Sequence record: PV636258.1
Direction: 5' to 3' (one strand)
DNA from: a phage
Length of the DNA stretch: 64,000 nt
In this document: positions 3,635 to 49,075 of the stretch, in pieces
How positions within the stretch are numbered: position 1 is the stretch's first letter
How the letters are laid out: every line of letters starts with the position of its first letter
Position numbers and translations under genes: made by a program
Notes under the pieces: generated by a model
Database searches by the model: none
Seen by the model: only the letters and a program-made list of their open reading frames with translations
Told to the model about the DNA's origin: nothing

Positions 3635-6600
3635 TTATGCCAGAGCAATAAGACGGAAGTCTTTGAATGATGGAGGAGCAACTCGGTTCCCCCGTACAAG
3701 CGCTCGGACTTTCAGGCCAACAAACGGATTGTTGCTCGCCACAGTCTTGTCATACTCATATTCAAAGAATGTGGAACCGTCGTTAACCAGAGGCGAAGTT
3801 GGGGTGACGTCTTCCCAAGCCACACTATCCATCTCTTGCCCTGCTCGTAGAAGTTTCACCTGCACTTTCATCGAAGACTGAGAAGGCAGCATCGCCCCGA
3901 AGAACAGTTTCACAGTCGAACATGGGTTATCGAAACCAATGTCCTTTGTGACATATTTGAAAACGTCTTCAAAAGGATCTACACCATAAGAGTTGAAGAT
4001 CACGCTCAGGTCATCACCATCAATCATCGGTGCTGTGTACACGTTGTTTTCACTACGAGTCATAGTAGCACGAATCTGGAAGTCACCAACCTGACGATAG
4101 ATACCTTCAGTCGGTAACGCCACGTCAGTGTCAGTTTCAAACTCAGCCCAATCAGACATAGAATTTGAAGTGGCATCGCGATAACGGTATTCCAATTTCA
4201 GAATTGAACCTTCCAGAGCCGAATTGGTAACGCTGGCATAGAACATATCAACCAGATAATTGCCCAAGAAAGAAGCATTATCCCCACCGATTTGTCCATT
4301 GCTGTCTGCTGCCGTACCGACGTCAATCTTGAATGAAGTATAGCTCGCATCTGTCACAGTAAACGTTTTGTTAAGTTGTTCAGGAGTAAAGCCACAACCG
4401 CCTGTCAATTCAGAAAGAGTGACATTGTTCCCAGCAACCAAACCATGACCAGGTGCAAACACAGTCACAACAGAAGACCCGCTTACGCAGTTCAGAGTGT
4501 TCAATCCCAACGGACGTTGTTTTGGCCCGAGCTTCGGATCAAATGTTACAACGTTCTGTCCCGCAGCGAAGTTACAACGATATATGCGGAATTTCATATC
4601 GGCCATTTGGTTCGGAGACCAAGTTGAACCGTTTGAAGAAGTGAAGAACACCCCTGTATACGGTTGTTTGGCGATATATTCGTTGGACAGAAGGTTTTTC
4701 TTGCCCATTTCCGCGATATACGCGTTGTAATCCTGAGTATTCGCCAACAAAACGATAGCAAACTCAGTAGATGCTTGCAGATACACCGGATAATCAAAGG
4801 TGAACTTCGTACCGCCGGAAGAGTCTGTAGAGATCGTCACTTCAGATGGGTTCAAAGTCTTACGAGTAATGACTGTGTGAGAAGGTAAGCCGTTCTCCAT
4901 CTCGCGAATTTCCAGAGTGATCGGAACATCACGTGACTTGGTAGAGAAGAATACTTCCACGCCTTCGATATACTCGCCGCCATTCTTAGTCGCCACCATA
5001 AACGATTGGGCAATCGGATCACGCCATTGGTCGACCACAACTTCAGAAGTGCTGGTTTCGGTGCGAGTACTGGCAGTGTAACCCAGGACACGAGTGTTGA
5101 CAAAGGTCTTTTGAATACCTTGTTTCTTACCGAAAGATTTATGAACAATTTCTGCATTGGTCAGTGTATCATCCGCAGATTTACTGTCAACAGGGCTATC
5201 CGTTAAGCGGAACACGTTGTCGCCTGTGTTGAACTTGATTGTATCGTTCTGTGGAACGCGGAATACACCCTTAACAGCACCATTGGCATCAGTGGTGATT
5301 GGGTCTCCGAAATTACCGCCATTCGGTTTGCAATACAGATTGACGTCACGACCAGAGAAGAACGCATACATACGAGTGAAAGGTCGCAGTCCAGATGCGT
5401 CGAAAGAAATATCGATCTCGCGCATGTATGGGATAACTTGCGTCTCCACAATCTGTTCACCAGTCATGGTCGTGGTTGTTTTGTCCGTGTATGTATATGT
5501 GGTGACATCACGGGCAGAAACAGTCGTGCGGTAACGATATCCCCACCACACACCACCAGCACCATGCGGTTCCCAAACACGATCAGAAACAGAAACAGTA
5601 CGCCATGTTCCGTACACTGAACCTTCTTGTACAGTACCACGGGTGTTGATCGTTTCATTGATAATACGCGGCGCAACATAATAGTTTTCGAACCAGTAGT
5701 CTGTGGTCGGGTTAATCTTCAAGAAACCTTCCCAATTGAATACTGCATACGGGTTAACGTTGATCGTCGTCGTCGCATATTCTTGGTTCACCGAGATTTC
5801 AGGCGTGTAATTGCAAACCACCATCCCATCCATCACTTTGTTCCAGCCAACCGGAGTCATGTCAACAACGTTTTGTTGTACAAACGGGCGCAGACGTCCG
5901 TTTTCGGTATCGATAGAACCCATCCAATCTTCAGACAAGTCATCAATCAACCGGAAGTCTTTGAACGGATCAGCTGCAATACCATTTTTGAAACGGGGAT
6001 TGCCCGTGATGGGGTCGAACACTTGCTGTGTCATCGCTGAAGATTCCAGCTGTGACAGAGAGGTATAGTATTCAACATTGGAAATACGGGTTTCCAGTTT
6101 ACCGATATCGCGCATCGTATAACGACGATTATCAATAGTTCGAATTTGGATATCATCAATATTCGGTGTATACGGCGGGATCAACAATTCATACAAACGC
6201 ATGGCGTTCGCTGGGATTGCTGGAGAAGCCAGGTTGTTAGAACTAATGCCTCGAGCCACACCAAACACACCGTTGTCTGCCAGATAAATCGCGTCAATAC
6301 GCGGCAGATAATATTCTGTGTCCAGAATAACTGCAGTGTTTGGACGAACCATATCTGTGTCAGAAGTTCCGTTGGTGATTTTCGGACGGAAATCCAAACT
6401 ATCTGCCAGGCCGTACACCGCGCCTGATGTAGAAGATGTATAATTCGGGATATCTTTATAATCCATCGAAGTATACGAATCAGCAGAGAAGAAATCACCG
6501 GAACTGTGGGCGAAGTATTGATACACCACTGTATACGTCCCTGAGATTGCTCCAGCGCTGGATAACAAGTTAGACTTGTAATACCCTGCATCACGCTGTC

Positions 6601-8473
6601 CGCCATCTAGGACGAAGCTGGAGGTCACGTCTGCGCCAGTATCGTTTTTGACCGACACCAATTTCCAACCATCGTGATTCGCCAAAGGGCGGCTAGTCTG
6701 CGAGGTGAATGTCACTGTTTCAGTTGTTTCAGTGATGGTCTTCGTTTTGATTGTGGCCGTGGTACGAATCATCAGCGCCAGCAAATTGATTGACTGGTTA
6801 GCATTACCACTGCCCAGAGAAATCTGCAGCGCCGAACCGACCGGAGAACCAGTCAAAGACAAAGAACCAGAGATATCGAACTGCGCTTCAGAACCATCAG
6901 ATTTCGCTGCAGAGTATAACGAAAATTCTGGGGAAAAACTATATCCCAATGGAGCAGAAATAGAACCCGCGCCGCTGTTGTCCAACGTCACTTTATACGT
7001 TCTCAGAACAGTGTAGTTGATATCCACGGAGCCAGTTGGTGCTAAAGTCTTGACACCGAATACCGGAAGAGAGAAGATCAGATCTATCATAGAACTCTGG
7101 TTAAACTGATTGGATTCCAGTTCAGCAGAGAACATGGTGATACCGCTTTCTTCGTAAGACACTTTGGTGATAGTGGATGCATCGCCAGTAACGACCAGGT
7201 CGCGCATGTACAGGCGGAATTCAGTTGAACTGCGTTCGGCGGATATACACAACGCCGTGGCTTGAGCAACACCGGATGCGTTCAGTAATTTGTATCGAAC
7301 GGTGCGGGATATCACTGGCACACCTTTAGAATTCTTAGTGACCAGATAATTGCCTGTGGCCACCGCAACAGGGGTGTTGTTCAGGACATCGGTATCCCGC
7401 GCCTTATCAACGATGACCAACTCTTCCCCGACGTTTTCGATACGTCGACCGCGAACATAGGATATGCCTGGTTTCATCACAGAAACAAATTTGCTCTCGT
7501 CACCGCCATCAGCGGCATTGAATACCCCGCCATTGTTATTGACTTTCAGGTGTTCACGAATATCGATCTGATGGGTTGAAACGTTGTAATCGCCATTGGT
7601 TTCATAAGTCCGTTGGGCTAACGTGTCTTCCAGAATATTATAGGTGGACTGAGTCACCATAGACTGGATTTTACCATCACGAACTTTGGCCAGTTCAACA
7701 AAGTCTTCAACCACAGCATCATAATCAAATCGAGATAAGACCAGATCTATTCGAAGACGATGAGCGCCTGGGGCTTTGGAGTTAATCGTTCCCTGAGCAT
7801 TTGAATAAAGGGATTCATCTTCTGTTTCGGTGACAATAGTTTCGGTGACTTTAAATCCGATGCGGTGGGAAGTGATGTTAGAAGTTTTATCAACGATAAG
7901 AGTTGCGTCATCAACGTCTAGGAACATCCCACGAATGAAGTAAACGCCTTTCGTCATACGAGCGACGATAGAACCAGTCACCGCAGCTGCGATACCATAA
8001 CCAATACGAATGAAATTATCATTCACATCGTAAGTCTGGAAATACAGATTATCGTTAACATGGAATCCGTCAGCATTACCCGCTTCAGTCATCTCAAGGA
8101 TAGCCAGCATCGTATCAGGAGCAGACAGATCACGTTCAAGAGACAACACACGCGCTTTGGCATTATTGTCCTTCCCCAAAACGTAGAGTTCAGAAATACC
8201 TTCCAGATCAGTGAATTCAGTACCACCAGCCAAAGTGAATTTCAAAGAGACTGCGGCATTGGTAATCGTCAGACCGCCAGGGATAACCATAGAACCATCT
8301 TTGAACAAATGGTTGCCCAGTTTTTCAATTTGATCCTGAAGAATAGTCTGCATCTGGTTCAGTTCGCGAGTCTGAACCTTGATAGGCATCGGACGAAAAA
8401 GAATCCGTGAAAAACGTTTCCCAGGATTCCAGTCATCCCAATACGGGCGACGGTTTAAATTTGTAGATTGCAT
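3635..8473 (-). CDS. Very large virion structural protein (1612 aa), putative baseplate or fibre component
   Basis: Uninterrupted 4.8-kb ORF; ATG with GGAG SD 9 nt upstream; position adjacent to the tailspike genes; Thr/Ser/Gly-rich beta-type sequence. Confidence 0.7.
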   Translation of the reverse strand: MQSTNLNRRPYWDDWNPGKRFSRILFRPMPIKVQTRELNQMQTILQDQIEKLGNHLFKDGSMVIPGGLTITNAAVSLKFTLAGGTEFTDLEGISELYVLGKDNNAKARVLSLERDLSAPDTMLAILEMTEAGNADGFHVNDNLYFQTYDVNDNFIRIGYGIAAAVTGSIVARMTKGVYFIRGMFLDVDDATLIVDKTSNITSHRIGFKVTETIVTETEDESLYSNAQGTINSKAPGAHRLRIDLVLSRFDYDAVVEDFVELAKVRDGKIQSMVTQSTYNILEDTLAQRTYETNGDYNVSTHQIDIREHLKVNNNGGVFNAADGGDESKFVSVMKPGISYVRGRRIENVGEELVIVDKARDTDVLNNTPVAVATGNYLVTKNSKGVPVISRTVRYKLLNASGVAQATALCISAERSSTEFRLYMRDLVVTGDASTITKVSYEESGITMFSAELESNQFNQSSMIDLIFSLPVFGVKTLAPTGSVDINYTVLRTYKVTLDNSGAGSISAPLGYSFSPEFSLYSAAKSDGSEAQFDISGSLSLTGSPVGSALQISLGSGNANQSINLLALMIRTTATIKTKTITETTETVTFTSQTSRPLANHDGWKLVSVKNDTGADVTSSFVLDGGQRDAGYYKSNLLSSAGAISGTYTVVYQYFAHSSGDFFSADSYTSMDYKDIPNYTSSTSGAVYGLADSLDFRPKITNGTSDTDMVRPNTAVILDTEYYLPRIDAIYLADNGVFGVARGISSNNLASPAIPANAMRLYELLIPPYTPNIDDIQIRTIDNRRYTMRDIGKLETRISNVEYYTSLSQLESSAMTQQVFDPITGNPRFKNGIAADPFKDFRLIDDLSEDWMGSIDTENGRLRPFVQQNVVDMTPVGWNKVMDGMVVCNYTPEISVNQEYATTTINVNPYAVFNWEGFLKINPTTDYWFENYYVAPRIINETINTRGTVQEGSVYGTWRTVSVSDRVWEPHGAGGVWWGYRYRTTVSARDVTTYTYTDKTTTTMTGEQIVETQVIPYMREIDISFDASGLRPFTRMYAFFSGRDVNLYCKPNGGNFGDPITTDANGAVKGVFRVPQNDTIKFNTGDNVFRLTDSPVDSKSADDTLTNAEIVHKSFGKKQGIQKTFVNTRVLGYTASTRTETSTSEVVVDQWRDPIAQSFMVATKNGGEYIEGVEVFFSTKSRDVPITLEIREMENGLPSHTVITRKTLNPSEVTISTDSSGGTKFTFDYPVYLQASTEFAIVLLANTQDYNAYIAEMGKKNLLSNEYIAKQPYTGVFFTSSNGSTWSPNQMADMKFRIYRCNFAAGQNVVTFDPKLGPKQRPLGLNTLNCVSGSSVVTVFAPGHGLVAGNNVTLSELTGGCGFTPEQLNKTFTVTDASYTSFKIDVGTAADSNGQIGGDNASFLGNYLVDMFYASVTNSALEGSILKLEYRYRDATSNSMSDWAEFETDTDVALPTEGIYRQVGDFQIRATMTRSENNVYTAPMIDGDDLSVIFNSYGVDPFEDVFKYVTKDIGFDNPCSTVKLFFGAMLPSQSSMKVQVKLLRAGQEMDSVAWEDVTPTSPLVNDGSTFFEYEYDKTVASNNPFVGLKVRALVRGNRVAPPSFKDFRLIALA

Positions 8474-39847: not shown

Positions 39848-40198
39848 ATGAAAATCCTCATTCCACGCAACGTTGTCGCTGTTGCTATTGATTACCGTGG
39901 TGATGCGAAGATGATTAACGCTGTCCGTTATTATCCGGAACAGAATAAAATCGTCCCACAATTTCAACTGAATACCAATCCTTCTTCTAAGGATTTCGGT
40001 TCTTGGCGTCAGGTGGGTTTGGCTCGTACCCAGGTCAATGCCCAGCATTTTATTTCCGAAAAGACGAAAACCGCCAAGCAAATTTGGTTGGTGACGAATG
40101 ATCGTCGTTTCCTGCCTATCTGGTCTCTGGGACAGCCCGTAGTAAGCCCCGAAGATATCCAACTCGAAGCCGAGGTGAAGGATGACGCATCTGTCTAA
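39848..40198 (+). CDS. Hypothetical protein (116 aa)
   Basis: ATG with AAAGGAA SD. Confidence 0.5.
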   Translation: MKILIPRNVVAVAIDYRGDAKMINAVRYYPEQNKIVPQFQLNTNPSSKDFGSWRQVGLARTQVNAQHFISEKTKTAKQIWLVTNDRRFLPIWSLGQPVVSPEDIQLEAEVKDDASV

Positions 40199-41423
40199 AA
40201 TGCCGCAGGGATATAAAGCCCCTGAAAAATGGAAATACCCGATTGATCTGGCAGTAGATTATCGTAAGCCAGAAAATCGCATGTACCTGCTCAAGGCATG
40301 GGTGGAGGCGCTATCCTACACTGAAGAGCATAACCAGCAAGTCCGTCTGATGGATTATGCCATCGAGGTTACAGAAGGCATCACACAGCTCGAAAAGATC
40401 GAGCGCAAGATTTGGATGGCCTTTTTGTGGGGGTGTTGCTATAATGGGATTGGACCATGGACAATTTACAGTGAATTTCCTGTACCCCCACAATCTCCGA
40501 AAGAGTTTCAGCGATTTTCTGATTGGTATAACCTGAATTTTGATCGTATGCGCTTCGATACAGATTGTCGTTATCGTAAGTCGAAAATGATTCCGTGCGT
40601 TCAGTCCTATATCGATTGGTTGGGTGGTAAAACCCAAATGGATTCTTTTCGTTGGATGTTGGAATGCACTACCAAGGAAGACCAGTTCACCGAACTGTGG
40701 AATACGGCGATGTCATGGAAATACTTCGGTCGCCTGAGCGCATGGAACTTCCTGGAAGCCCTGAACATGGTCTTCGGTAACATATGGGATATAGACGTCC
40801 CTGGGTTCATGTTGCGTGACCGTGATGGTAGCGAATCCAATCGTAACGGCGCGGCGTTCTTATCCAACCGTGATGATTGGGTGACCAAGCACGGGAAGAA
40901 AAAGATCAACGGTTGTCCTATTACAGACGAAGAATGTGATATACTCGAAACCGACCTTGAGAAAGCGTTTCAGGAATGCGTTGAAGAGTTTGGCCACATC
41001 ACGTTTATCAATCGTCTGAACTTTGAGACCTCCGGTGCTTGTTGGTTGAAGAAATTCTTCCGACTGAAGAATACCCGTTACATCGGGTGGGACGCCGAGC
41101 GTACATGGGACGAGATCGATTATATGGAACGTATTTGGCCTGAATACTCCTGTGCACCTCTCTGGGAAGCCCGTTCACTCTGGCTACCAGATACCCTGTT
41201 ATGTGAGAAGGCTCCTGCAGGGCACGTTCCAGGCGTCCAGAAGTGGAAGATGCCCGTGTTCTTTGAGACGGGTGTTCCTCTACATATCTGGCATTTACAG
41301 CAGGGTACACGTTGGGAACCGTCTGAGGTTTGTTTGTCAGTTGGTAAATTGGACACCATGAGCCGAAATGGTACTGTGTATCCTTCTAAAAGTGTGAACC
41401 TCATGACACTCTTGAAACGCTGA
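40182..41423 (+). CDS. Hypothetical protein (413 aa); possible DNA base-modification enzyme by context only
   Basis: ATG with GAGGTGAAGG SD; no motif recognised by eye; sits two genes downstream of the P-loop kinase. Confidence 0.55.
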   Translation: MTHLSKMPQGYKAPEKWKYPIDLAVDYRKPENRMYLLKAWVEALSYTEEHNQQVRLMDYAIEVTEGITQLEKIERKIWMAFLWGCCYNGIGPWTIYSEFPVPPQSPKEFQRFSDWYNLNFDRMRFDTDCRYRKSKMIPCVQSYIDWLGGKTQMDSFRWMLECTTKEDQFTELWNTAMSWKYFGRLSAWNFLEALNMVFGNIWDIDVPGFMLRDRDGSESNRNGAAFLSNRDDWVTKHGKKKINGCPITDEECDILETDLEKAFQECVEEFGHITFINRLNFETSGACWLKKFFRLKNTRYIGWDAERTWDEIDYMERIWPEYSCAPLWEARSLWLPDTLLCEKAPAGHVPGVQKWKMPVFFETGVPLHIWHLQQGTRWEPSEVCLSVGKLDTMSRNGTVYPSKSVNLMTLLKR

Positions 41424-41645: not shown

Positions 41646-41693
41646 TTCAATAAAGGGGAATGGGTTATTATTAGCCCGTTCCCCTTTCTTTTT
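41646..41693 (+). terminator. TTCAATAAA box plus hairpin (TATTAT loop) plus T-run: terminator/promoter composite
   Basis: TTCAATAAA 41646-41654; GGGGAATGGG / CCCGTTCCCC hairpin with TTATTATTAG loop; TTTCTTTTT 41685-41693. Confidence 0.55.
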
Positions 41694-41910: not shown

Positions 41911-42123
41911 ATGGCAATGCAACGAATTGAAGACATGTCTGCGCTCGATATGGAAGCGACTTTTGGTGATTACTTTGAGTCCACCCCAAAACAAAAAGAA
42001 CCTCTGGTTGGTCGTTTGGTTGTTTCTGAAGCGTTCGCCCAGAAGGTTCGCGAAGGTCTTCCTGCAGAATATAGTTGTTTCCGTAATGGCGCTCCTGTTA
42101 TCGTCATGGGAGAATCTAAATGA
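41911..42123 (+). CDS. Small hypothetical protein (70 aa)
   Basis: ATG with GAGG SD. Confidence 0.4.
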   Translation: MAMQRIEDMSALDMEATFGDYFESTPKQKEPLVGRLVVSEAFAQKVREGLPAEYSCFRNGAPVIVMGESK

Positions 42124-42506
42124 CACAGTCCGAATACAAACAGTACCTGTACGATCTGTTCATGAAAGAAACGGATGGTACACTCCACCCTAAGAAAGCC
42201 ACTATCGTCGCGTTGCATTCTGAAGGTAATTTGTCTATAGCATATATCCGAAAAGAACTCGATTTGATGGGAATCGAATATGAAGACCATATCACGGATA
42301 CACGTGCTTTAAAAAGAGCAACAGCAATCGTTCTTCACACCGTTGCAACAATTATGCATCGCCACCATGTTTCTTTTGACGATGCAATAACTCCACAGTA
42401 TCATGAAGAACGCTGGGAATTGCTCAAATTGAACGGGGCGCACAGTTCTCACAAAAATCAACTTCTTGGTATGACGAAGGAACAACTCGTGGATGGTGTG
42501 TTATGA
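42120..42506 (+). CDS. Hypothetical protein (128 aa)
   Basis: ATG overlapping upstream stop. Confidence 0.5.
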   Translation: MTQSEYKQYLYDLFMKETDGTLHPKKATIVALHSEGNLSIAYIRKELDLMGIEYEDHITDTRALKRATAIVLHTVATIMHRHHVSFDDAITPQYHEERWELLKLNGAHSSHKNQLLGMTKEQLVDGVL

Positions 42507-43612
42507 TTTACCTTCTGTTTGTGGTTCCTGTAATTTTGGCCATCTTGTTTATAATATATCACCGCAAGACCCATGAGCCAAAGGAGACTTTGATCGCCAC
42601 GGCCATTGTTATCGTATTGTCTTGCCTTATCCAGTCGGGATTATATGCTGCTTTCTCCCTTGGTAGTTCTGGGGACGTGGAAATCCTGAATGGATATGTA
42701 ACTGATAAGCAACGGAATAAGGTGGGTTGTGAACATTCTTATGAATGTATGTGTTATTACACAACATCTTGTACAGGTTCAGGAAATAACCGATCTTGTA
42801 CACAAACGCGTCATTGCAGCACATGCTATGAGCACTCTTATGACGTTGATTGGGACGTATTAACAACCGTCGGTGATCTGAGCATTGACCGTATTGATCG
42901 TCAGGGTACTACAGAGCCTCCGCGTTGGGCACAAGTTAAAATCGGGGAACCTGCGGCACGTGAACATTCATATATGAATTATGTGCTGGGCAACAAAGAT
43001 TCATTATTCTCTAAATCTGACCAGCAATTCGCTGAGAAGTTCAAAGAGCATATCCCTTCATATCCGAGGGTGTATGATTATTACCGAGTAACTCGTGTTC
43101 TGAATATGTCAGGGATGGACATTCCTGTTGATTACTGGAATGACTATCTGAACAATACTCTGAAAACATTAGGTGCTTCACGTCAGGTTAATATCGTTTG
43201 GGTTGTGACTTCTGGCCAGCCTGTTGAATATTTTCAGGGACTTCTATATGCATGGTCTGGCGGTAAAAAGAACGATGTTATTGTAGTCACCGATATTTCA
43301 AAGGATATGAAAATTAATTGGGGTAAGTCTACGTCATTTGCCGACGGCATGAACAACATGGAACTCCATTCTCGTAACGGACTTTCATTGACTGGGAAAC
43401 CAATGGGCATATCCGTGTTCCAAGAAGTTGCGGTCAATATCAGTAAGGGATACAACCGAGTTGAGATGAAGGAAATGGAATATCTGAAATGGCGAGATCT
43501 TAAAACTTGGGAAGTGATTATCGTCGTGCTGTTTGGATGTATCCCATTTACCGCAGTTTTCATATTAGGCCGCATGCAGTACAATGGTCGAACTTATAAA
43601 CGTTTGTTTTAA
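42503..43612 (+). CDS. Cys-rich membrane protein (369 aa)
   Basis: N- and C-terminal hydrophobic segments; Cys cluster CEHSYECMCYYTTSCTGSGNNRSCTQTRHCSTCYEH. Confidence 0.55.
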   Translation: MIYLLFVVPVILAILFIIYHRKTHEPKETLIATAIVIVLSCLIQSGLYAAFSLGSSGDVEILNGYVTDKQRNKVGCEHSYECMCYYTTSCTGSGNNRSCTQTRHCSTCYEHSYDVDWDVLTTVGDLSIDRIDRQGTTEPPRWAQVKIGEPAAREHSYMNYVLGNKDSLFSKSDQQFAEKFKEHIPSYPRVYDYYRVTRVLNMSGMDIPVDYWNDYLNNTLKTLGASRQVNIVWVVTSGQPVEYFQGLLYAWSGGKKNDVIVVTDISKDMKINWGKSTSFADGMNNMELHSRNGLSLTGKPMGISVFQEVAVNISKGYNRVEMKEMEYLKWRDLKTWEVIIVVLFGCIPFTAVFILGRMQYNGRTYKRLF

Positions 43613-43627
43613 CAAGAGGAAGTAAAG

Positions 43628-44197
43628 ATGTCACAACGTAAAGGTATTTCAATTGGTTGGATCGTTGGGTTGGCAATTCTAGCATTTGCTGTAATTGGGA
43701 TTGGCAGTGTGGTTAGCTATTTCAATGACTTCAACCGCATTGAACAACAGGTCAAAAAGTTCAACAAAGATTCTGAAAACCACCTGAGCAATTATACGCT
43801 CAAAGTTCAGGAGACGGCGCAGATTCCTGACATGTACAAAAACGGTTTGAAGGAAGTGATCAAAGATACTTTCCAAGGCCGTTATGGCGCAGACGGTTCC
43901 AAAGCAGTAATGCAATGGATTCAGGAACAGAATATTCAGTTTGATTCATCTTTGTACAAAGAGATTCAGGTTGTTATCAGCTCAGGTCGGGATGAATTCC
44001 GCATTAGCCAAACTAAAAAATTGGACGCATGTGCGATCTATGAAACTAAACTTGGCCAGTTCCCTGGTTCTCTGATAGCAGGAATCTTTGGATATCCGCG
44101 TATCGATCTTGACAAGACATGTCAGGTGGTGAGTGACACCCGTACCCAGGCCGCATTTGACTCCGGTGTCCAGACTCCGATTAACTTCAAAGGCTGA
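43628..44197 (+). CDS. LemA-like membrane protein
   Basis: Single N-terminal TM (ISIGWIVGLAILAFAVIGIGSVV) followed by about 160-aa soluble domain, overall architecture and length like LemA family; recalled from memory, not searched. Confidence 0.4.
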   Translation: MSQRKGISIGWIVGLAILAFAVIGIGSVVSYFNDFNRIEQQVKKFNKDSENHLSNYTLKVQETAQIPDMYKNGLKEVIKDTFQGRYGADGSKAVMQWIQEQNIQFDSSLYKEIQVVISSGRDEFRISQTKKLDACAIYETKLGQFPGSLIAGIFGYPRIDLDKTCQVVSDTRTQAAFDSGVQTPINFKG

Positions 44198-44201
44198 TCT
44201 T

Positions 44202-44624
44202 ATGAGCGTGAAACTAACCGAATCTCTGACGCTGGAACAGCAACAGGCGTTACTGGATGAAGTGGTAATCTCTGCTGTCAAGCAGGGCATTATCCGTGAC
44301 GACACGTTGTTGACGCGCCCCGAAATGATCCATCATCTGGTGGTGTGCCTGGGCGAAGCCAATAATCCTCGCAAAAAGATTGTAATGTTCAAAGAAGGCA
44401 TTATTTATCCCAATGGAAGATTCGCTTGGTTAACCCTATCGGGAAGTCATCCGGATTTGAAGGATGAACAGAAAGAAATCAAAACTTCTGTTCCGGTAAC
44501 GCCATACACTGAAGGAGTTGATTTATTGTCTTGGTTTGAGACCATCAATACCATCTATGTCATGGCACCTGATGGTAAGCCAGCACAGGATCTGCGTGGT
44601 GGGGTTGTAGGTTCGGAAGACTAA
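44202..44624 (+). CDS. Hypothetical protein (140 aa)
   Basis: ORF 44133-44624 with start moved to ATG 44202 (MSVKLTE). Confidence 0.45.
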   Translation: MSVKLTESLTLEQQQALLDEVVISAVKQGIIRDDTLLTRPEMIHHLVVCLGEANNPRKKIVMFKEGIIYPNGRFAWLTLSGSHPDLKDEQKEIKTSVPVTPYTEGVDLLSWFETINTIYVMAPDGKPAQDLRGGVVGSED

Positions 44625-44630
44625 TAGTTC

Positions 44631-44675
44631 TTCAATAAATGGGGATAGGGTATTATTGCTCTATCCTCTTTTTTA
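44631..44675 (+). terminator. TTCAATAAA box plus hairpin (TATTAT loop) plus T-run
   Basis: TTCAATAAA 44631-44639; GGGGATAG / CTATCCTC hairpin with TATTAT in loop; TTTTTT 44669-44674. Confidence 0.55.
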
Positions 44676-44686
44676 TGGAATGTGTT

Positions 44687-45058
44687 ATGTCTGACAAGCC
44701 AAGAAAGATTGCAATTATTGGAGGAGGAATCGGCGCTCGGACTATGGCCACTATCCTTCAAGAAAAGCTGAAAGGCGTTGAAGTAGAATGTATCAGTGTA
44801 GACGATATTCCTAAACGTCGTTGTGAACCAGGTGAACGCATGATAATTTGTGATGATCTGGTAGAAAGTGAACGCAAAACATTGGTATCTCAAGCGGTGG
44901 CTCAGTTACGGAAGGCAGATATTTCGTATTGTGAAGCAGAAGCCGATGACAGAGACATAATTGCGTCACAACGTTATCAAAAGCCGCCGCGCCTATATGG
45001 AGCCGCCCAACATAAACGTCAGGCTAAGAAATATAAAAATCGGAGTAAACGAAAATGA
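44687..45058 (+). CDS. Hypothetical protein with GGGIGA glycine-rich motif (123 aa)
   Basis: KIAIIGGGIGARTMA; basic C-terminal tail; start moved to ATG 44687. Confidence 0.4.
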   Translation: MSDKPRKIAIIGGGIGARTMATILQEKLKGVEVECISVDDIPKRRCEPGERMIICDDLVESERKTLVSQAVAQLRKADISYCEAEADDRDIIASQRYQKPPRLYGAAQHKRQAKKYKNRSKRK

Positions 45059-46333: not shown

Positions 46334-49075
46334 ATGAAAATGCGCAAGTCCGAGCATTTCGTGCGCTCTTCTTCTACCATCGTCGGACAGACATTCAATG
46401 TCAAGATGACGGATAAATTATTTGAAACATTATTTTCAAGTCTCTACAAATATAAAGAGGCGGCGTCTTTGCGTGAGACGTTGTGTAATGGTATAGACTC
46501 GCATAATATGCGTGATCGCCAACAACGCTGGATGCCATCGCATTATGCTCCTCTCACTCCTATGCCTCAACGATACAGCAAACATCTTGCCCCCAAGGGA
46601 ACTCCTGTTGTTGTACATTTACCGGATGTTATGGAACCCTGGCTGGAAATTAAAGATTATGGGGTTGGTCTTCCATTAGAAATGATCATCGGCGAGCCTA
46701 TTACAGCGCGTGAAGATGAAGTGCTGGTTGAAGGTAATATCGTCGTGAAGGAAGACGAAATCCCTGATAGCACTGCTGTTATTGGTACACCTGGTTATTA
46801 TAATGGGGTACTGGTATTCCGCGCTGAGGATGGCGAGATCATTCGTGGACCTGGTTTGTATACAACACTCTTCCATAGTACAAAAGAGGACGACGACGGG
46901 CAAATAGGGGCGTTTGGGCTAGGTTCTAAATCCCCATTTGCGGTATCTGATTCATTTACAGTAGAAAGTCGCTATGAGGGGAAACTGTATCGCTTCCTGA
47001 TGTATCTGAATGCGGACAGAATCCCAACTGTGGATCTCATTACCAAGGATTTAGATACCCGTGATCCTAAACCGGAAGACACTGATGAGTTCAACGGCCT
47101 GACTGTTAAAGTTCCTGTAAAGAATCAGCGTTTTACCGCCTTTGAACAAGAGTTGGTCCGTTTGGGTCGAGTGATGCGACCTTCAATGCGACCGAAGGTT
47201 GAAAACGCCAGTTATTCTTTCCGTTGGTCTGACATCAACTTCGAAAACCGTGTAGGCAACACATATATCCAACCGAAGTCAGATTCCGACAACATCCACT
47301 ATGCTGTCATGGGCGGGGTTTCTTACCCGATAGATCTCGACCAATTGGACTCTGAAATATGCACCGTGCTGGAAAAATTCCCGAGTTCCTATACCTTCTT
47401 CGAACTTGGAGAACTGAATGTACCGCCGTCACGCGAAGACTTGTCATACGACGAATTCACTCGTGAAAGCCTGAACCGCGTGTTCAAGCATGTGGCCGAA
47501 AATATCATGCAAGCGAAGATGTATGAACTTCGCCAAGCGGAGTCAATGGGTCCTCTTATGTTGTATATGAAAAAGACTCAGCTGACTGATATGTTCGGTA
47601 GTGGTTTCCGTAAATTGGTCGAACGGGAATTTCCTGCAGATAACCGTTTCTACAAAGGCACGTTCCGTTATATCGGAGCGCCGGACGTCGTGCGCGATTA
47701 CTCTTTGGATGCACCTTTCCGGTCTATTGGTAGTCCTTACGAAATTGAAGTACACGACAACGGTGTAGTACACGACAGCATTTATGTGAACTCTGTCGGA
47801 AATTGGTTGAAATCTAAATCAAAAATTGCTGTTATTATTGATAACTCGAATCGTGCTCGAAACCTGAAGATACAAACAGCACGCAATAACTTCAATGTCG
47901 TTATCGTCGTCAAACCGAATGAAAATTATTTCAGTAATCGGAATCAGCTTGCGGCACATAAAGAATCATTTACCAACCATGAGGAATTGAAGTCTTATTT
48001 TGAATCATGGATCGGTGTACAAGAAACAACGCCGGACTACCTGGTCTTTGCCGATAAACTGATCGAGGTCTTTGGCGATTTATTCAATCCGGATGAAGTC
48101 TATTTCATGCATGAAATGGAATATGTTCGCCCGACCGTTGAAAAAGATCCTGGGATGTTTAGTTTCTATTACAATTCATTTAACTTCGACAGCGTTTATG
48201 AATTAGATGGAAAAACCGTTTCAGATATTATTGATTCGGGCAAAAAGATCGTATATATCGAAGTATCTGGCCGAGAAGGTATCCATAAAATTCATGGTAA
48301 TACCTTACGACAATCCACGGCTGGACATTTGCGTGAAGCGATGGAAAGAACGAAGTTCGGCGAGAATGGAAACGAAAACCTGTTTGATTTGCTGGGAGCA
48401 CATCCAACAATCGTTCTTGCGCGTCGTAAATCTGTTCCGATGATGAAGAAATTCCCAGAAGTATTCATCCCCATTGACGCAGTGTTTGATATGTTGCTTG
48501 AGCATTATAAAGATGAATTTCAGGCGCTTGAATCTAAGAAACTCCTGAAACTTCGCAAGGGTATAAACATCATGTCTCATCGCATTGATTATGGTGCCAA
48601 GCTGTTGATTGATTCCCATGGAAAAGTTACGGATGGCTATGCCCATCATCAACACAGGGCAAAAGCAATCATCAGTTATGCGAAACAACAAATCACTGAA
48701 GAAGAATGGAAGATTGTTCGTATGCTGGCCAAACGAAATCCGTCTGGATCGGGGTACGGTTATTTCCGCAAGGCTGTTGAGGAATTACATTATCGTATAG
48801 AAATGCCTTTCCCAACTACGAGATTTTTCCGCGCCTGTAACCAGTTAACTCAAGTTGTTGATTTATTGAATGAAAAATTAACTGCTGAAGGATTTGATGA
48901 GATAAATGTCACTAGCACTATATCTCAAAAGCAAAAGGCCAAAAACCGATACCGAGTTGAATGTCATCGTTTGGTGAAGTTCATGATGTCAAAATATCAG
49001 CCTTCGGCACACAACGCGATTGAAGATGCCACTAGATTTGTGAAGGCTATTTCAAAACGTATTCTCGGGGCATAA
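46334..49075 (+). CDS. rIIA: rIIA-like protein with N-terminal GHKL-type ATPase domain
   Basis: GHKL motifs: N-box ETLCNGIDS, G1 DYGVGLP, G2 GAFGLGSKSPF; 913 aa; followed by a second large gene as in the rIIA-rIIB pair. Confidence 0.55.
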   Translation: MKMRKSEHFVRSSSTIVGQTFNVKMTDKLFETLFSSLYKYKEAASLRETLCNGIDSHNMRDRQQRWMPSHYAPLTPMPQRYSKHLAPKGTPVVVHLPDVMEPWLEIKDYGVGLPLEMIIGEPITAREDEVLVEGNIVVKEDEIPDSTAVIGTPGYYNGVLVFRAEDGEIIRGPGLYTTLFHSTKEDDDGQIGAFGLGSKSPFAVSDSFTVESRYEGKLYRFLMYLNADRIPTVDLITKDLDTRDPKPEDTDEFNGLTVKVPVKNQRFTAFEQELVRLGRVMRPSMRPKVENASYSFRWSDINFENRVGNTYIQPKSDSDNIHYAVMGGVSYPIDLDQLDSEICTVLEKFPSSYTFFELGELNVPPSREDLSYDEFTRESLNRVFKHVAENIMQAKMYELRQAESMGPLMLYMKKTQLTDMFGSGFRKLVEREFPADNRFYKGTFRYIGAPDVVRDYSLDAPFRSIGSPYEIEVHDNGVVHDSIYVNSVGNWLKSKSKIAVIIDNSNRARNLKIQTARNNFNVVIVVKPNENYFSNRNQLAAHKESFTNHEELKSYFESWIGVQETTPDYLVFADKLIEVFGDLFNPDEVYFMHEMEYVRPTVEKDPGMFSFYYNSFNFDSVYELDGKTVSDIIDSGKKIVYIEVSGREGIHKIHGNTLRQSTAGHLREAMERTKFGENGNENLFDLLGAHPTIVLARRKSVPMMKKFPEVFIPIDAVFDMLLEHYKDEFQALESKKLLKLRKGINIMSHRIDYGAKLLIDSHGKVTDGYAHHQHRAKAIISYAKQQITEEEWKIVRMLAKRNPSGSGYGYFRKAVEELHYRIEMPFPTTRFFRACNQLTQVVDLLNEKLTAEGFDEINVTSTISQKQKAKNRYRVECHRLVKFMMSKYQPSAHNAIEDATRFVKAISKRILGA

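Follow-up and report, generated by a model that had tools for sequence, protein, structure and literature searches.

Two adjacent genes on the plus strand of a 64,000-nucleotide stretch of phage DNA (sequence record PV636258.1; the whole stretch is called the window below) encode a 369-residue membrane protein, referred to here as the partner, and a 189-residue protein with a remote similarity to the bacterial membrane protein LemA. The source of the DNA is a Kuttervirus (family Ackermannviridae), a Salmonella/E. coli phage, and its phage origin has been confirmed; bases 42000 to 44700 show 97 to 99% DNA identity to Kuttervirus phages such as Se-U, Marshall, Mooltan, and the E. coli phage CBA120. 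The two open reading frames (ORFs) had been picked out as neighbors in a preliminary description of the window. They are indeed present and conserved, and correspond to orf253 and orf254 of CBA120. The former is annotated in CBA120 as a hypothetical protein and the latter (gp199 in RefSeq) as a virion structural protein; the PHROGs family of the partner, phrog_2087, carries no function label.

The pair is not part of the structural gene block; it lies in a region of non-structural, early/middle-type genes near rIIA (46334-49075), and neither the endolysin gene nor the spanin genes adjoin it in this stretch. The ATG of the partner gene shares an ATGA (42503-42506) with the TGA of the upstream gene, and a spacer of 15 nucleotides separates the partner gene from the LemA-like gene. 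Two strong hairpins of the intrinsic-terminator type delimit a group of six small genes, orf250 to orf255, that includes the pair (Table 1). A promoter scan returned 8 candidates, as compared with 9.8 expected from shuffled sequences, which is not above chance; therefore, no promoter is claimed.

Table 1. Features of the locus (positions in the window; residue numbers refer to the respective protein)
Feature	Position	Strand	Remarks
Terminator-like hairpin upstream of the unit	41652..41687	+	16-bp stem and T run; equivalent terminator annotated in LIMEstone1
Partner gene, 369 aa	42503..43612	+	ATG start; CBA120 orf253, LIMEstone1 ORF194; phrog_2087, E = 5e-167
Partner transmembrane helix 1, residues 2-20	42506..42562	+	AlphaFold2 (AF2) model and hydropathy; no positive N-terminal flank, N terminus predicted to face outward
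Partner transmembrane helix 2, ~residues 30-52	42590..42658	+	AF2 model and hydropathy; preceded by the basic loop HRKTHEPKE, predicted to be cytoplasmic
Beta-rich Cys/His domain of the partner, residues 57-158	42671..42976	+	Strands of the AF2 model
TPM-fold alpha/beta domain of the partner (modeled), ~residues 199-330	43097..43492	+	Includes the W-x-GGKKNDV motif (residues 251-259)
Partner transmembrane helix 3, residues 335-361	43505..43585	+	AF2 model and hydropathy; followed by the basic tail GRMQYNGRTYKRLF, predicted to be cytoplasmic
Ribosome-binding site GAGGAAG of the LemA-like gene	43616..43622	+	Read in the 15-nt spacer; the Mooltan annotation has a ribosome-binding site at the equivalent place
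LemA-like gene, 189 aa	43628..44197	+	ATG start; CBA120 orf254, LIMEstone1 ORF195; phrog_1383, E = 8e-88
Transmembrane anchor of the LemA-like protein, ~residues 9-31	43652..43720	+	Preceded by MSQRKG; AF2 model, hydropathy, and flank charges
Segment of the LemA-like protein with the Cys pair C135 and C165	44030..44122	+	Predicted disulfide
Terminator-like hairpin closing the unit	44641..44668	+	12-bp stem and T run; equivalent terminator annotated in Mooltan and LIMEstone1

Relationship of the 189-residue protein to LemA

The LemA-like family comprises 86 clusters in a word-indexed search and 1416 representatives (at 50% identity) in a profile search. Its relationship to LemA emerges from profile-profile comparison. 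An hhalign run of a profile of 48 phage homologs against 33 bona fide LemA proteins, each carrying the PF04011 domain, gives a probability of 96.4% (E = 1.2e-9) for a collinear alignment of 137 columns, which spans the membrane helix through the C-terminal G-[YF]-P/GF motif. The controls, consisting of the reversed LemA alignment and five column-shuffled ones, all fail (probabilities no higher than 1.6%, E values of at least 0.03), which shows that the match is not an effect of composition or of coiled coils. A search of 177,635 PDB sequences with the family profile has LemA (2etd) as its top match (E = 0.0064), reached through two collinear stretches. Conversely, a LemA hidden Markov model (HMM) run over the 2289 ORFs of the loci analyzed recovers true LemA proteins and the LemA-like ORFs of phages and nothing else; the copy from CBA120 scores E = 0.0035 in this search. 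Some databases already name relatives accordingly, with “LemA family protein” in UniRef for a Klebsiella phage and “LEMA protein” in GenBank for phage ph0011.

The likeness to LemA (2etd is TM0961 of Thermotoga maritima) extends to the overall layout. The phage protein, at 189 aa, is close in length to LemA (~186 aa), and in both, a single transmembrane helix at the N terminus leads into a helical domain of ~150 aa; a single N-terminal hydrophobic segment is found throughout 218 members of the LemA-like family. The polar positions that follow the helix (N33, E39, and N51) and the C-terminal R...Y...F...G-[YF] pattern are shared, and in both cases the gene neighbor encodes a TPM-domain membrane protein, although for the phage partner the TPM fold comes from a model. 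The AF2 model of the 189-residue protein is all-helical, with a helix starting at residue 9 (pLDDT 81; low confidence in residues 60-110).

Several observations weigh against this relationship. The Pfam scan finds no PF04011 match at E ≤ 1 for the 189-residue protein (the gathering score of this family is 26.2 bits). The LemA motifs QLQRRxDLIPNLV, ENYPxLKA, and GTENRIxxAR are not conserved in the phage family: in the hhalign alignment, the phage consensus at the motif sites reads N-x-LS-x-YTLK and GR-x-x-F, and the ENYP segment is absent, leaving an alignment gap of ~18 residues where ENYPxLKA would fall. Fold searches with the AF2 model, whose middle region is of low confidence, return generic helical bundles and do not recover 2etd. 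The NCBIfam scan likewise contains no LemA match for this protein. Searches with single sequences of both proteins (phmmer) against PDB give no match, and among the best 150 matches of a profile search covering 1.84 billion representatives there are close family members only, with no bridge to LemA.

Matches to PF04011 below the threshold are seen in 5 of the 48 relatives (best E = 0.0016) and in a natural fusion of the partner with the LemA-like protein (P0241, described below), which reaches 15.8 bits. As no member attains the Pfam gathering level, the 189-residue protein represents a divergent relative of LemA and not a member of the Pfam family; judged by profile-profile comparison, it is a remote LemA homolog. 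The preliminary description had noted an architecture resembling that of LemA and had named the lack of a LemA profile match, together with a lack of membrane localization, as grounds for dropping the idea. Pfam indeed offers no match at E ≤ 1, whereas the profile-profile match is clear and 2etd heads the PDB search, so the resemblance stands as remote homology but not as membership in PF04011. Apart from the motif differences, the phage version differs from LemA in being carried by virulent phages rather than cells and in having a phage-specific Cys pair, which is found in about three quarters of the aligned phage family members.

Architecture of the partner and predicted topology

More than 435 homologs of the partner were found. 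Its AF2 model, based on an alignment of 53 relatives (pLDDT 89, pTM 0.79), includes an alpha/beta domain that matches TPM structures in PDB: TLP18.3 (3pw9, score 10.2), BA41 (5anp, 9.3), the TPM domain of Rhodothermus marinus (7tbr, 9.1), the TPM domains 2kpt and 2kw7 (8.7 each), and Psb32 (8c7i, 8.7), with two more TPM structures lower in the match list. In this model, the partner carries a TPM-fold domain. At the sequence level, 13 of the 53 relatives match the TPM family PF04536 below the threshold (best E = 1.8e-4), far more than match any other family. The hhalign comparison of the partner family with four bacterial TPM proteins is weak; it places partner residues 211-267 on the first helix-strand-helix-strand unit of TPM, which is the structurally expected place, and its E value of 0.002 is better than those of all six controls (0.033 or more).

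The case for a TPM domain has its own weak points. The profile support is marginal, with an hhalign probability of 12 to 13% over 57 columns. The Pfam scan finds no domain in the partner, which misses the PF04536 gathering score of 22.1 bits, and the TPM signature EVGYGLEG is not conserved in the phage family. The segment R-I-E-V-G-Y-G-L-E-G is invariant in the four bacterial TPM neighbors of LemA and has K-I-N-W-G-K-S-T-S-F as its phage counterpart; the motif W-x-GGKKNDV of the phage family stands in place of EVGYGLEG. When only one TPM sequence was compared with the partner family, hhalign gave no match, nor did the partner-family profile find a TPM match in PDB. The NCBIfam and PADLOC scans of both proteins returned nothing meaningful.

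In comparison with known members of the TPM family (TLP18.3/Psb32, MOLO-1, BA41/BA42, and the YgcG-like neighbors of LemA), the phage partner contains an additional N-terminal domain of ~100 aa, rich in Cys, His, and beta strands, that has no recognized fold; the PDB structure comparison yielded TPM and helical matches only and no known fold for residues 57-158. This domain harbors the dense Cys cluster mentioned in the preliminary description: seven Cys residues lie within positions 76-108, and the cluster as a whole consists of C76, H78, C82, C84, C90, C99, C105, C108, and H111. Among 121 family members, C76 and C82 are conserved in 120, C108, H78, and H111 in 113, and C99 in 112. The two conserved His residues occur in C-x-H-x-Y-x-C and C-x-x-H contexts. 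Seven Cys residues are found in the cluster segment of 87 of the 121 members, so that the number is mostly odd. Given this odd count and the two conserved His residues, disulfides, a metal site, or both would all fit the domain.

The partner also differs from other TPM proteins in being anchored at both ends. Its hydrophobic segments (residues 1-23, 28-54, and 333-359, with hydropathy windows above 1.6) coincide with AF2 helices 2-20, 26-54, and 335-361, indicating two N-terminal transmembrane helices and one C-terminal helix. The bacterial TPM proteins next to LemA, unlike the phage partner, combine a signal peptide with one helix and a Gly-rich tail. The terminal transmembrane segments reported in the preliminary description are thus borne out for both ends, except that the N terminus has two helices and not one; the single-pass layout that it gave for the 189-residue protein agrees with the present analysis, which has one N-terminal helix and then a helical domain.

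The partner is predicted to be a three-pass inner-membrane protein, with its TPM-fold domain between the second and third helices on the periplasmic side. In keeping with the positive-inside rule, a cytoplasmic location suits the loop between the first two helices and the C-terminal tail, both of which are basic, and the large domain begins with an acidic stretch, as would suit the periplasm. For the LemA-like protein, the prediction is a single-pass protein with its N terminus inside and a helical domain in the periplasm, in agreement with the short basic N terminus seen across the family. C135 and C165 point in the same direction: 91 aligned members have both, 29 have neither, and none has just one. 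This all-or-none pattern is the signature of a disulfide and suggests a periplasmic domain. The fusion protein P0241 (553 aa, from the representative library) joins the partner (residues 1 to ~350) head to tail to the LemA-like protein (residues 371-552), and each half retains its own transmembrane helices. The linker after the last helix of the partner must be cytoplasmic, and the helix of the LemA-like half would then lead its domain out again, which would put both soluble domains on the same, periplasmic side. Two other relatives, P0216 (250 aa) and P0220 (265 aa), contain extra N-terminal hydrophobic segments ahead of the LemA-like part.

Linkage and distribution of the two genes

Association with a membrane partner, ascribed to LemA in the preliminary description, is borne out by the bacterial genes, and the kind of partner is the same. 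In a sample of five bacterial LemA genes, four directly adjoin a gene for a TPM protein, in either order; the lone case is Fervidobacterium. The four neighbors (257-295 aa) match PF04536 at E values of 1e-35 to 1e-41 and consist of a signal/transmembrane helix, the TPM domain, a transmembrane helix, and a Gly-rich tail. Since bacterial LemA is usually found beside a TPM protein and the phage genes are arranged alike, the phage pair reproduces a whole module and not a single gene. Two of the TPM genes beside LemA (L039:3573-4385 and L040:3687-4574) have a blank entry in the precomputed Pfam column, although hmmscan assigns them to TPM at E values of 2.7e-39 and 2.1e-41. Context tables can accordingly understate the adjacency of LemA and TPM genes.

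The LemA-like gene directly follows the partner gene in Cronobacter jumbo phage GAP32, Vibrio phages KIT04 and ICP1, Erwinia jumbo phage RAY, Dickeya phage LIMEstone1, and a JGI contig. A scan of distant loci, limited to one genome per bacterial species, comprised 28 partner loci, mostly from metagenome bins and many of them probably phage contigs. Among the 26 with enough downstream sequence, the two genes are adjacent in 22, with the LemA-like gene directly downstream in 21 and the reverse order in 1. By tblastn, 487 phage records contain the partner and 500 contain the LemA-like gene, and the counts (partner and LemA-like, respectively) are nearly equal for phages of Salmonella (168 and 166), Escherichia (63 and 63), Klebsiella (55 and 54), Erwinia (29 and 29), Acinetobacter (23 and 23), Serratia (22 and 22), Vibrio (22 and 22), and Dickeya (19 and 19). 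The carriers include Ackermannviridae, ICP1, jumbo phages, phiM12, and Acinetobacter phages, and all named carriers inspected are large virulent phages. The whole pair, in a strongly diverged form, thus stays together in roughly 1% of the sequenced phage genomes, including the experimentally tractable phages CBA120, ICP1, and LIMEstone. No work on the phage pair turned up in literature searches that combined LemA with TPM or with phage.

Some loci depart from the common pattern. Four partner homologs, from locus L020 and from three high-GC loci of Kofleriaceae, Deltaproteobacteria, and “Enterobacteriaceae” metagenome-assembled genomes (L029, L032, and L033), have no adjacent LemA-like gene. 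They score E values of 1e-80 to 1e-102 against the family HMM, and they may be genuine cellular copies, or else their LemA-like genes may have diverged beyond detection. A contig labeled Kaiserbacteria (L015) carries both kinds of LemA: the phage-type pair, with its LemA-like gene at 4966-5601, and ~2 kb downstream a bona fide LemA (7470-8051; E = 4.9e-60).

The pair is also found in assemblies of the cultured bacteria Achromobacter anxifer (L011, a 487-kb contig) and Variovorax sp. WDL1 (L018, a 282-kb contig). In the former, a recA-type gene closely precedes it, and a gene for a mechanosensitive-channel-like protein is nearby; the other flanking ORFs scanned there have no Pfam match. These two copies may belong to a prophage, a contaminating phage, or the chromosome. 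In Bacillus phage G (gp142; H122, 82676-83230), a jumbo phage of a Gram-positive host, and in Prevotella Lak megaphages (H123-H125), tblastn gives weak matches to the LemA-like protein, at 26-34% identity. The partner-search records inspected contain no match from either phage G or the Lak megaphages, which suggests that the LemA-like gene may also travel with other partners.

Possible functions of the pair

LemA and its TPM neighbor are a common bacterial membrane gene pair without an assigned function, and the phage pair is a divergent variant of this known, functionally unsolved module rather than a new kind of system. The gain is at the level of annotation and not of mechanism: the “hypothetical” 369-residue partner obtains a fold assignment, and the propagated label “virion structural protein” is corrected for its neighbor. 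As to what the genes do, the pair is probably a phage-borne, highly divergent LemA/TPM two-gene membrane module that forms a periplasm-facing complex for membrane maintenance or scaffolding. Both genes would be expressed as parts of a single transcription unit, separate from the block of virion genes. The partner would be anchored in the host inner membrane by its two N-terminal helices and one C-terminal helix and would display the Cys/His-rich beta domain and the TPM-fold domain in the periplasm. The LemA-like protein, with its N terminus inside, would add a helical periplasmic domain bearing a disulfide. The two proteins very probably act together as one complex, which might serve as a scaffold or in a chaperone-like way to keep or remodel the inner membrane or its complexes until lysis; such upkeep would last through the infection cycle, which is long in these large phages.

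The homology and fold assignments, the linkage of the genes, and their distribution among phages are shown by the data above, the topology and the disulfide are predictions from sequence, and the complex and its role are inferred. This role is proposed by analogy, because TPM domains elsewhere are extracytoplasmic accessory or assembly subunits and because bacterial lemA occurs in envelope-stress contexts. TPM domains have been proposed as chaperone-like partners of membrane complexes, also in PspA envelope-stress operons (PMC11237479); characterized cases are Psb32/TLP18.3 acting on photosystem II (repair), AscF in the respiratory CIII-CIV supercomplex of mycobacteria, and MOLO-1, which acts on a receptor. 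In Streptococcus pneumoniae, lemA adjoins htpX and is co-regulated with it (PMC8546594), and an sppA mutant shows induction of lemA together with a TPM gene (PMC13236525). On the other side, the analogy leads back to bacterial LemA, which is itself a functionally unsolved system, and both RefSeq and PHROGs label the 189-residue protein as a virion structural protein. By this analogy, a role in membrane maintenance or as a scaffold is favored over superinfection exclusion, lysis control, and a role in the virion. As phages with these genes can be deleted for them and the proteins can be expressed from plasmids, the pair offers a simple genetic system for studying what LemA and TPM proteins do on the periplasmic side of the inner membrane.

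A more specific and distinctly speculative proposal is that the pair is a dedicated phage device for the takeover of the host inner membrane, i.e., a periplasm-facing complex, used by about 500 virulent phages, whose phage-specific Cys/His domain senses metal or redox state and which holds membrane integrity or the proton-motive force, or blunts membrane-triggered abortive-infection defenses, until lysis. If this were the case, the phage genes would open a first tractable route to the function of the widespread LemA-TPM module of bacteria, because they can be deleted and the deletions can be scored by infection phenotypes. Were membrane maintenance, exclusion, or anti-defense to be the true function, the pair would also be relevant to Kuttervirus phages used in biocontrol.

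Superinfection exclusion and lysis timing, the functions suggested in the preliminary description, were guesses, and nothing found here supports either of them specifically. Both have precedents in T4, whose holin T (with antiholin RI) and Imm/Sp proteins reside in the inner membrane, have domains in the periplasm, and affect the envelope of the host during infection. The phage pair is predicted to share this general character, but it has no sequence or profile similarity to these proteins in Pfam or PHROGs, and its homology is to LemA and TPM. For exclusion, the periplasm-facing complex would block genome entry, or the degradation of wall or membrane, by later phages, like T4 Imm/Sp. The predicted inner-membrane location with periplasmic domains, the position of the genes in an early/middle-type region close to rIIA, and the restriction to virulent phages, which gain from exclusion, would all suit such a function. 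Nevertheless, it is unlikely: Pfam, PHROGs, NCBIfam, and PADLOC reveal no similarity to any known exclusion protein, the homology is to a bacterial module of the housekeeping type, and the pair is kept across phages that differ widely in host and entry machinery, whereas genes for exclusion are as a rule lineage specific.

Still less probable is a function in lysis control, with one of the two proteins being the missing Kuttervirus holin, an antiholin, or a sensor for lysis inhibition. T4 holin T has a single transmembrane helix and, in the periplasm, a domain with a disulfide bond, a layout similar to that predicted for the LemA-like protein. CBA120 has no identified holin although lysis inhibition has been seen with it (PMC3184105), and a 2022 Kuttervirus annotation lists only a spanin, an endolysin, and a lysozyme-like protein (PMC9409062). 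However, neither protein of the window matches a holin or antiholin family in Pfam, PHROGs, NCBIfam, or PADLOC (stray weak matches to holin families occur in just 1 or 2 of the 53 partner relatives), the genes do not adjoin those for the endolysin or spanin, and the bacterial LemA and TPM homologs are ordinary, non-lethal genes. In addition, the pair is found in ICP1 and in T4-like Aeromonas and Vibrio phages, which presumably have their own known holins.

The label “virion structural protein” would imply that the 189-residue protein is part of the particle, perhaps as a membrane-inserting ejection protein. This label is attached to both phrog_1383 and CBA120 gp199 and goes back to particle proteomics of phage ViI, as cited in PMC3184105. 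The corresponding gene products of the related phage LIMEstone1, ORF195 and ORF194, are absent from the mass-spectrometry table of 39 LIMEstone1 virion proteins, even though this table does include non-structural carry-over, such as rIIB and DNA ligase. The Erwinia phage RAY homolog, gp46, is “structural” by similarity only and does not appear in the RAY mass-spectrometry table. The membrane anchor, the predicted periplasmic disulfide, the three-pass membrane partner, the homology to LemA, and the location outside the structural block also speak against a virion protein; a membrane-anchored LemA homolog with a predicted disulfide is an unlikely capsid or tail part, and this possibility can be given very little weight. 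A chance resemblance, whereby a transmembrane helix and a coiled coil mimic LemA through their composition and the neighboring membrane protein is unrelated, is similarly far-fetched and has been largely refuted by the hhalign match with its composition-preserving controls (at most 1.6%, versus 96% for the real, collinear alignment) and by the specificity of the reciprocal LemA HMM search, the more so as the neighbor independently displays the fold of the usual partner of LemA.

Two genes outside the terminator-delimited unit also deserve mention. About 1 kb upstream, the gene at 40182-41423 codes for an amino-acid:DNA transferase (PF18724 ADDT, E = 1.9e-57) that is annotated as “hypothetical” in CBA120 and Mooltan; the ADDT family is associated with thymidine hypermodification in phages. 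The gene that comes after the closing terminator (44639-45058 in the window; Mooltan_005, L002:5175-5558) is called “FAD-binding protein” in Mooltan and “hypothetical” in CBA120, and its product opens with the GxGxxG-like motif IAIIGGGIGA.

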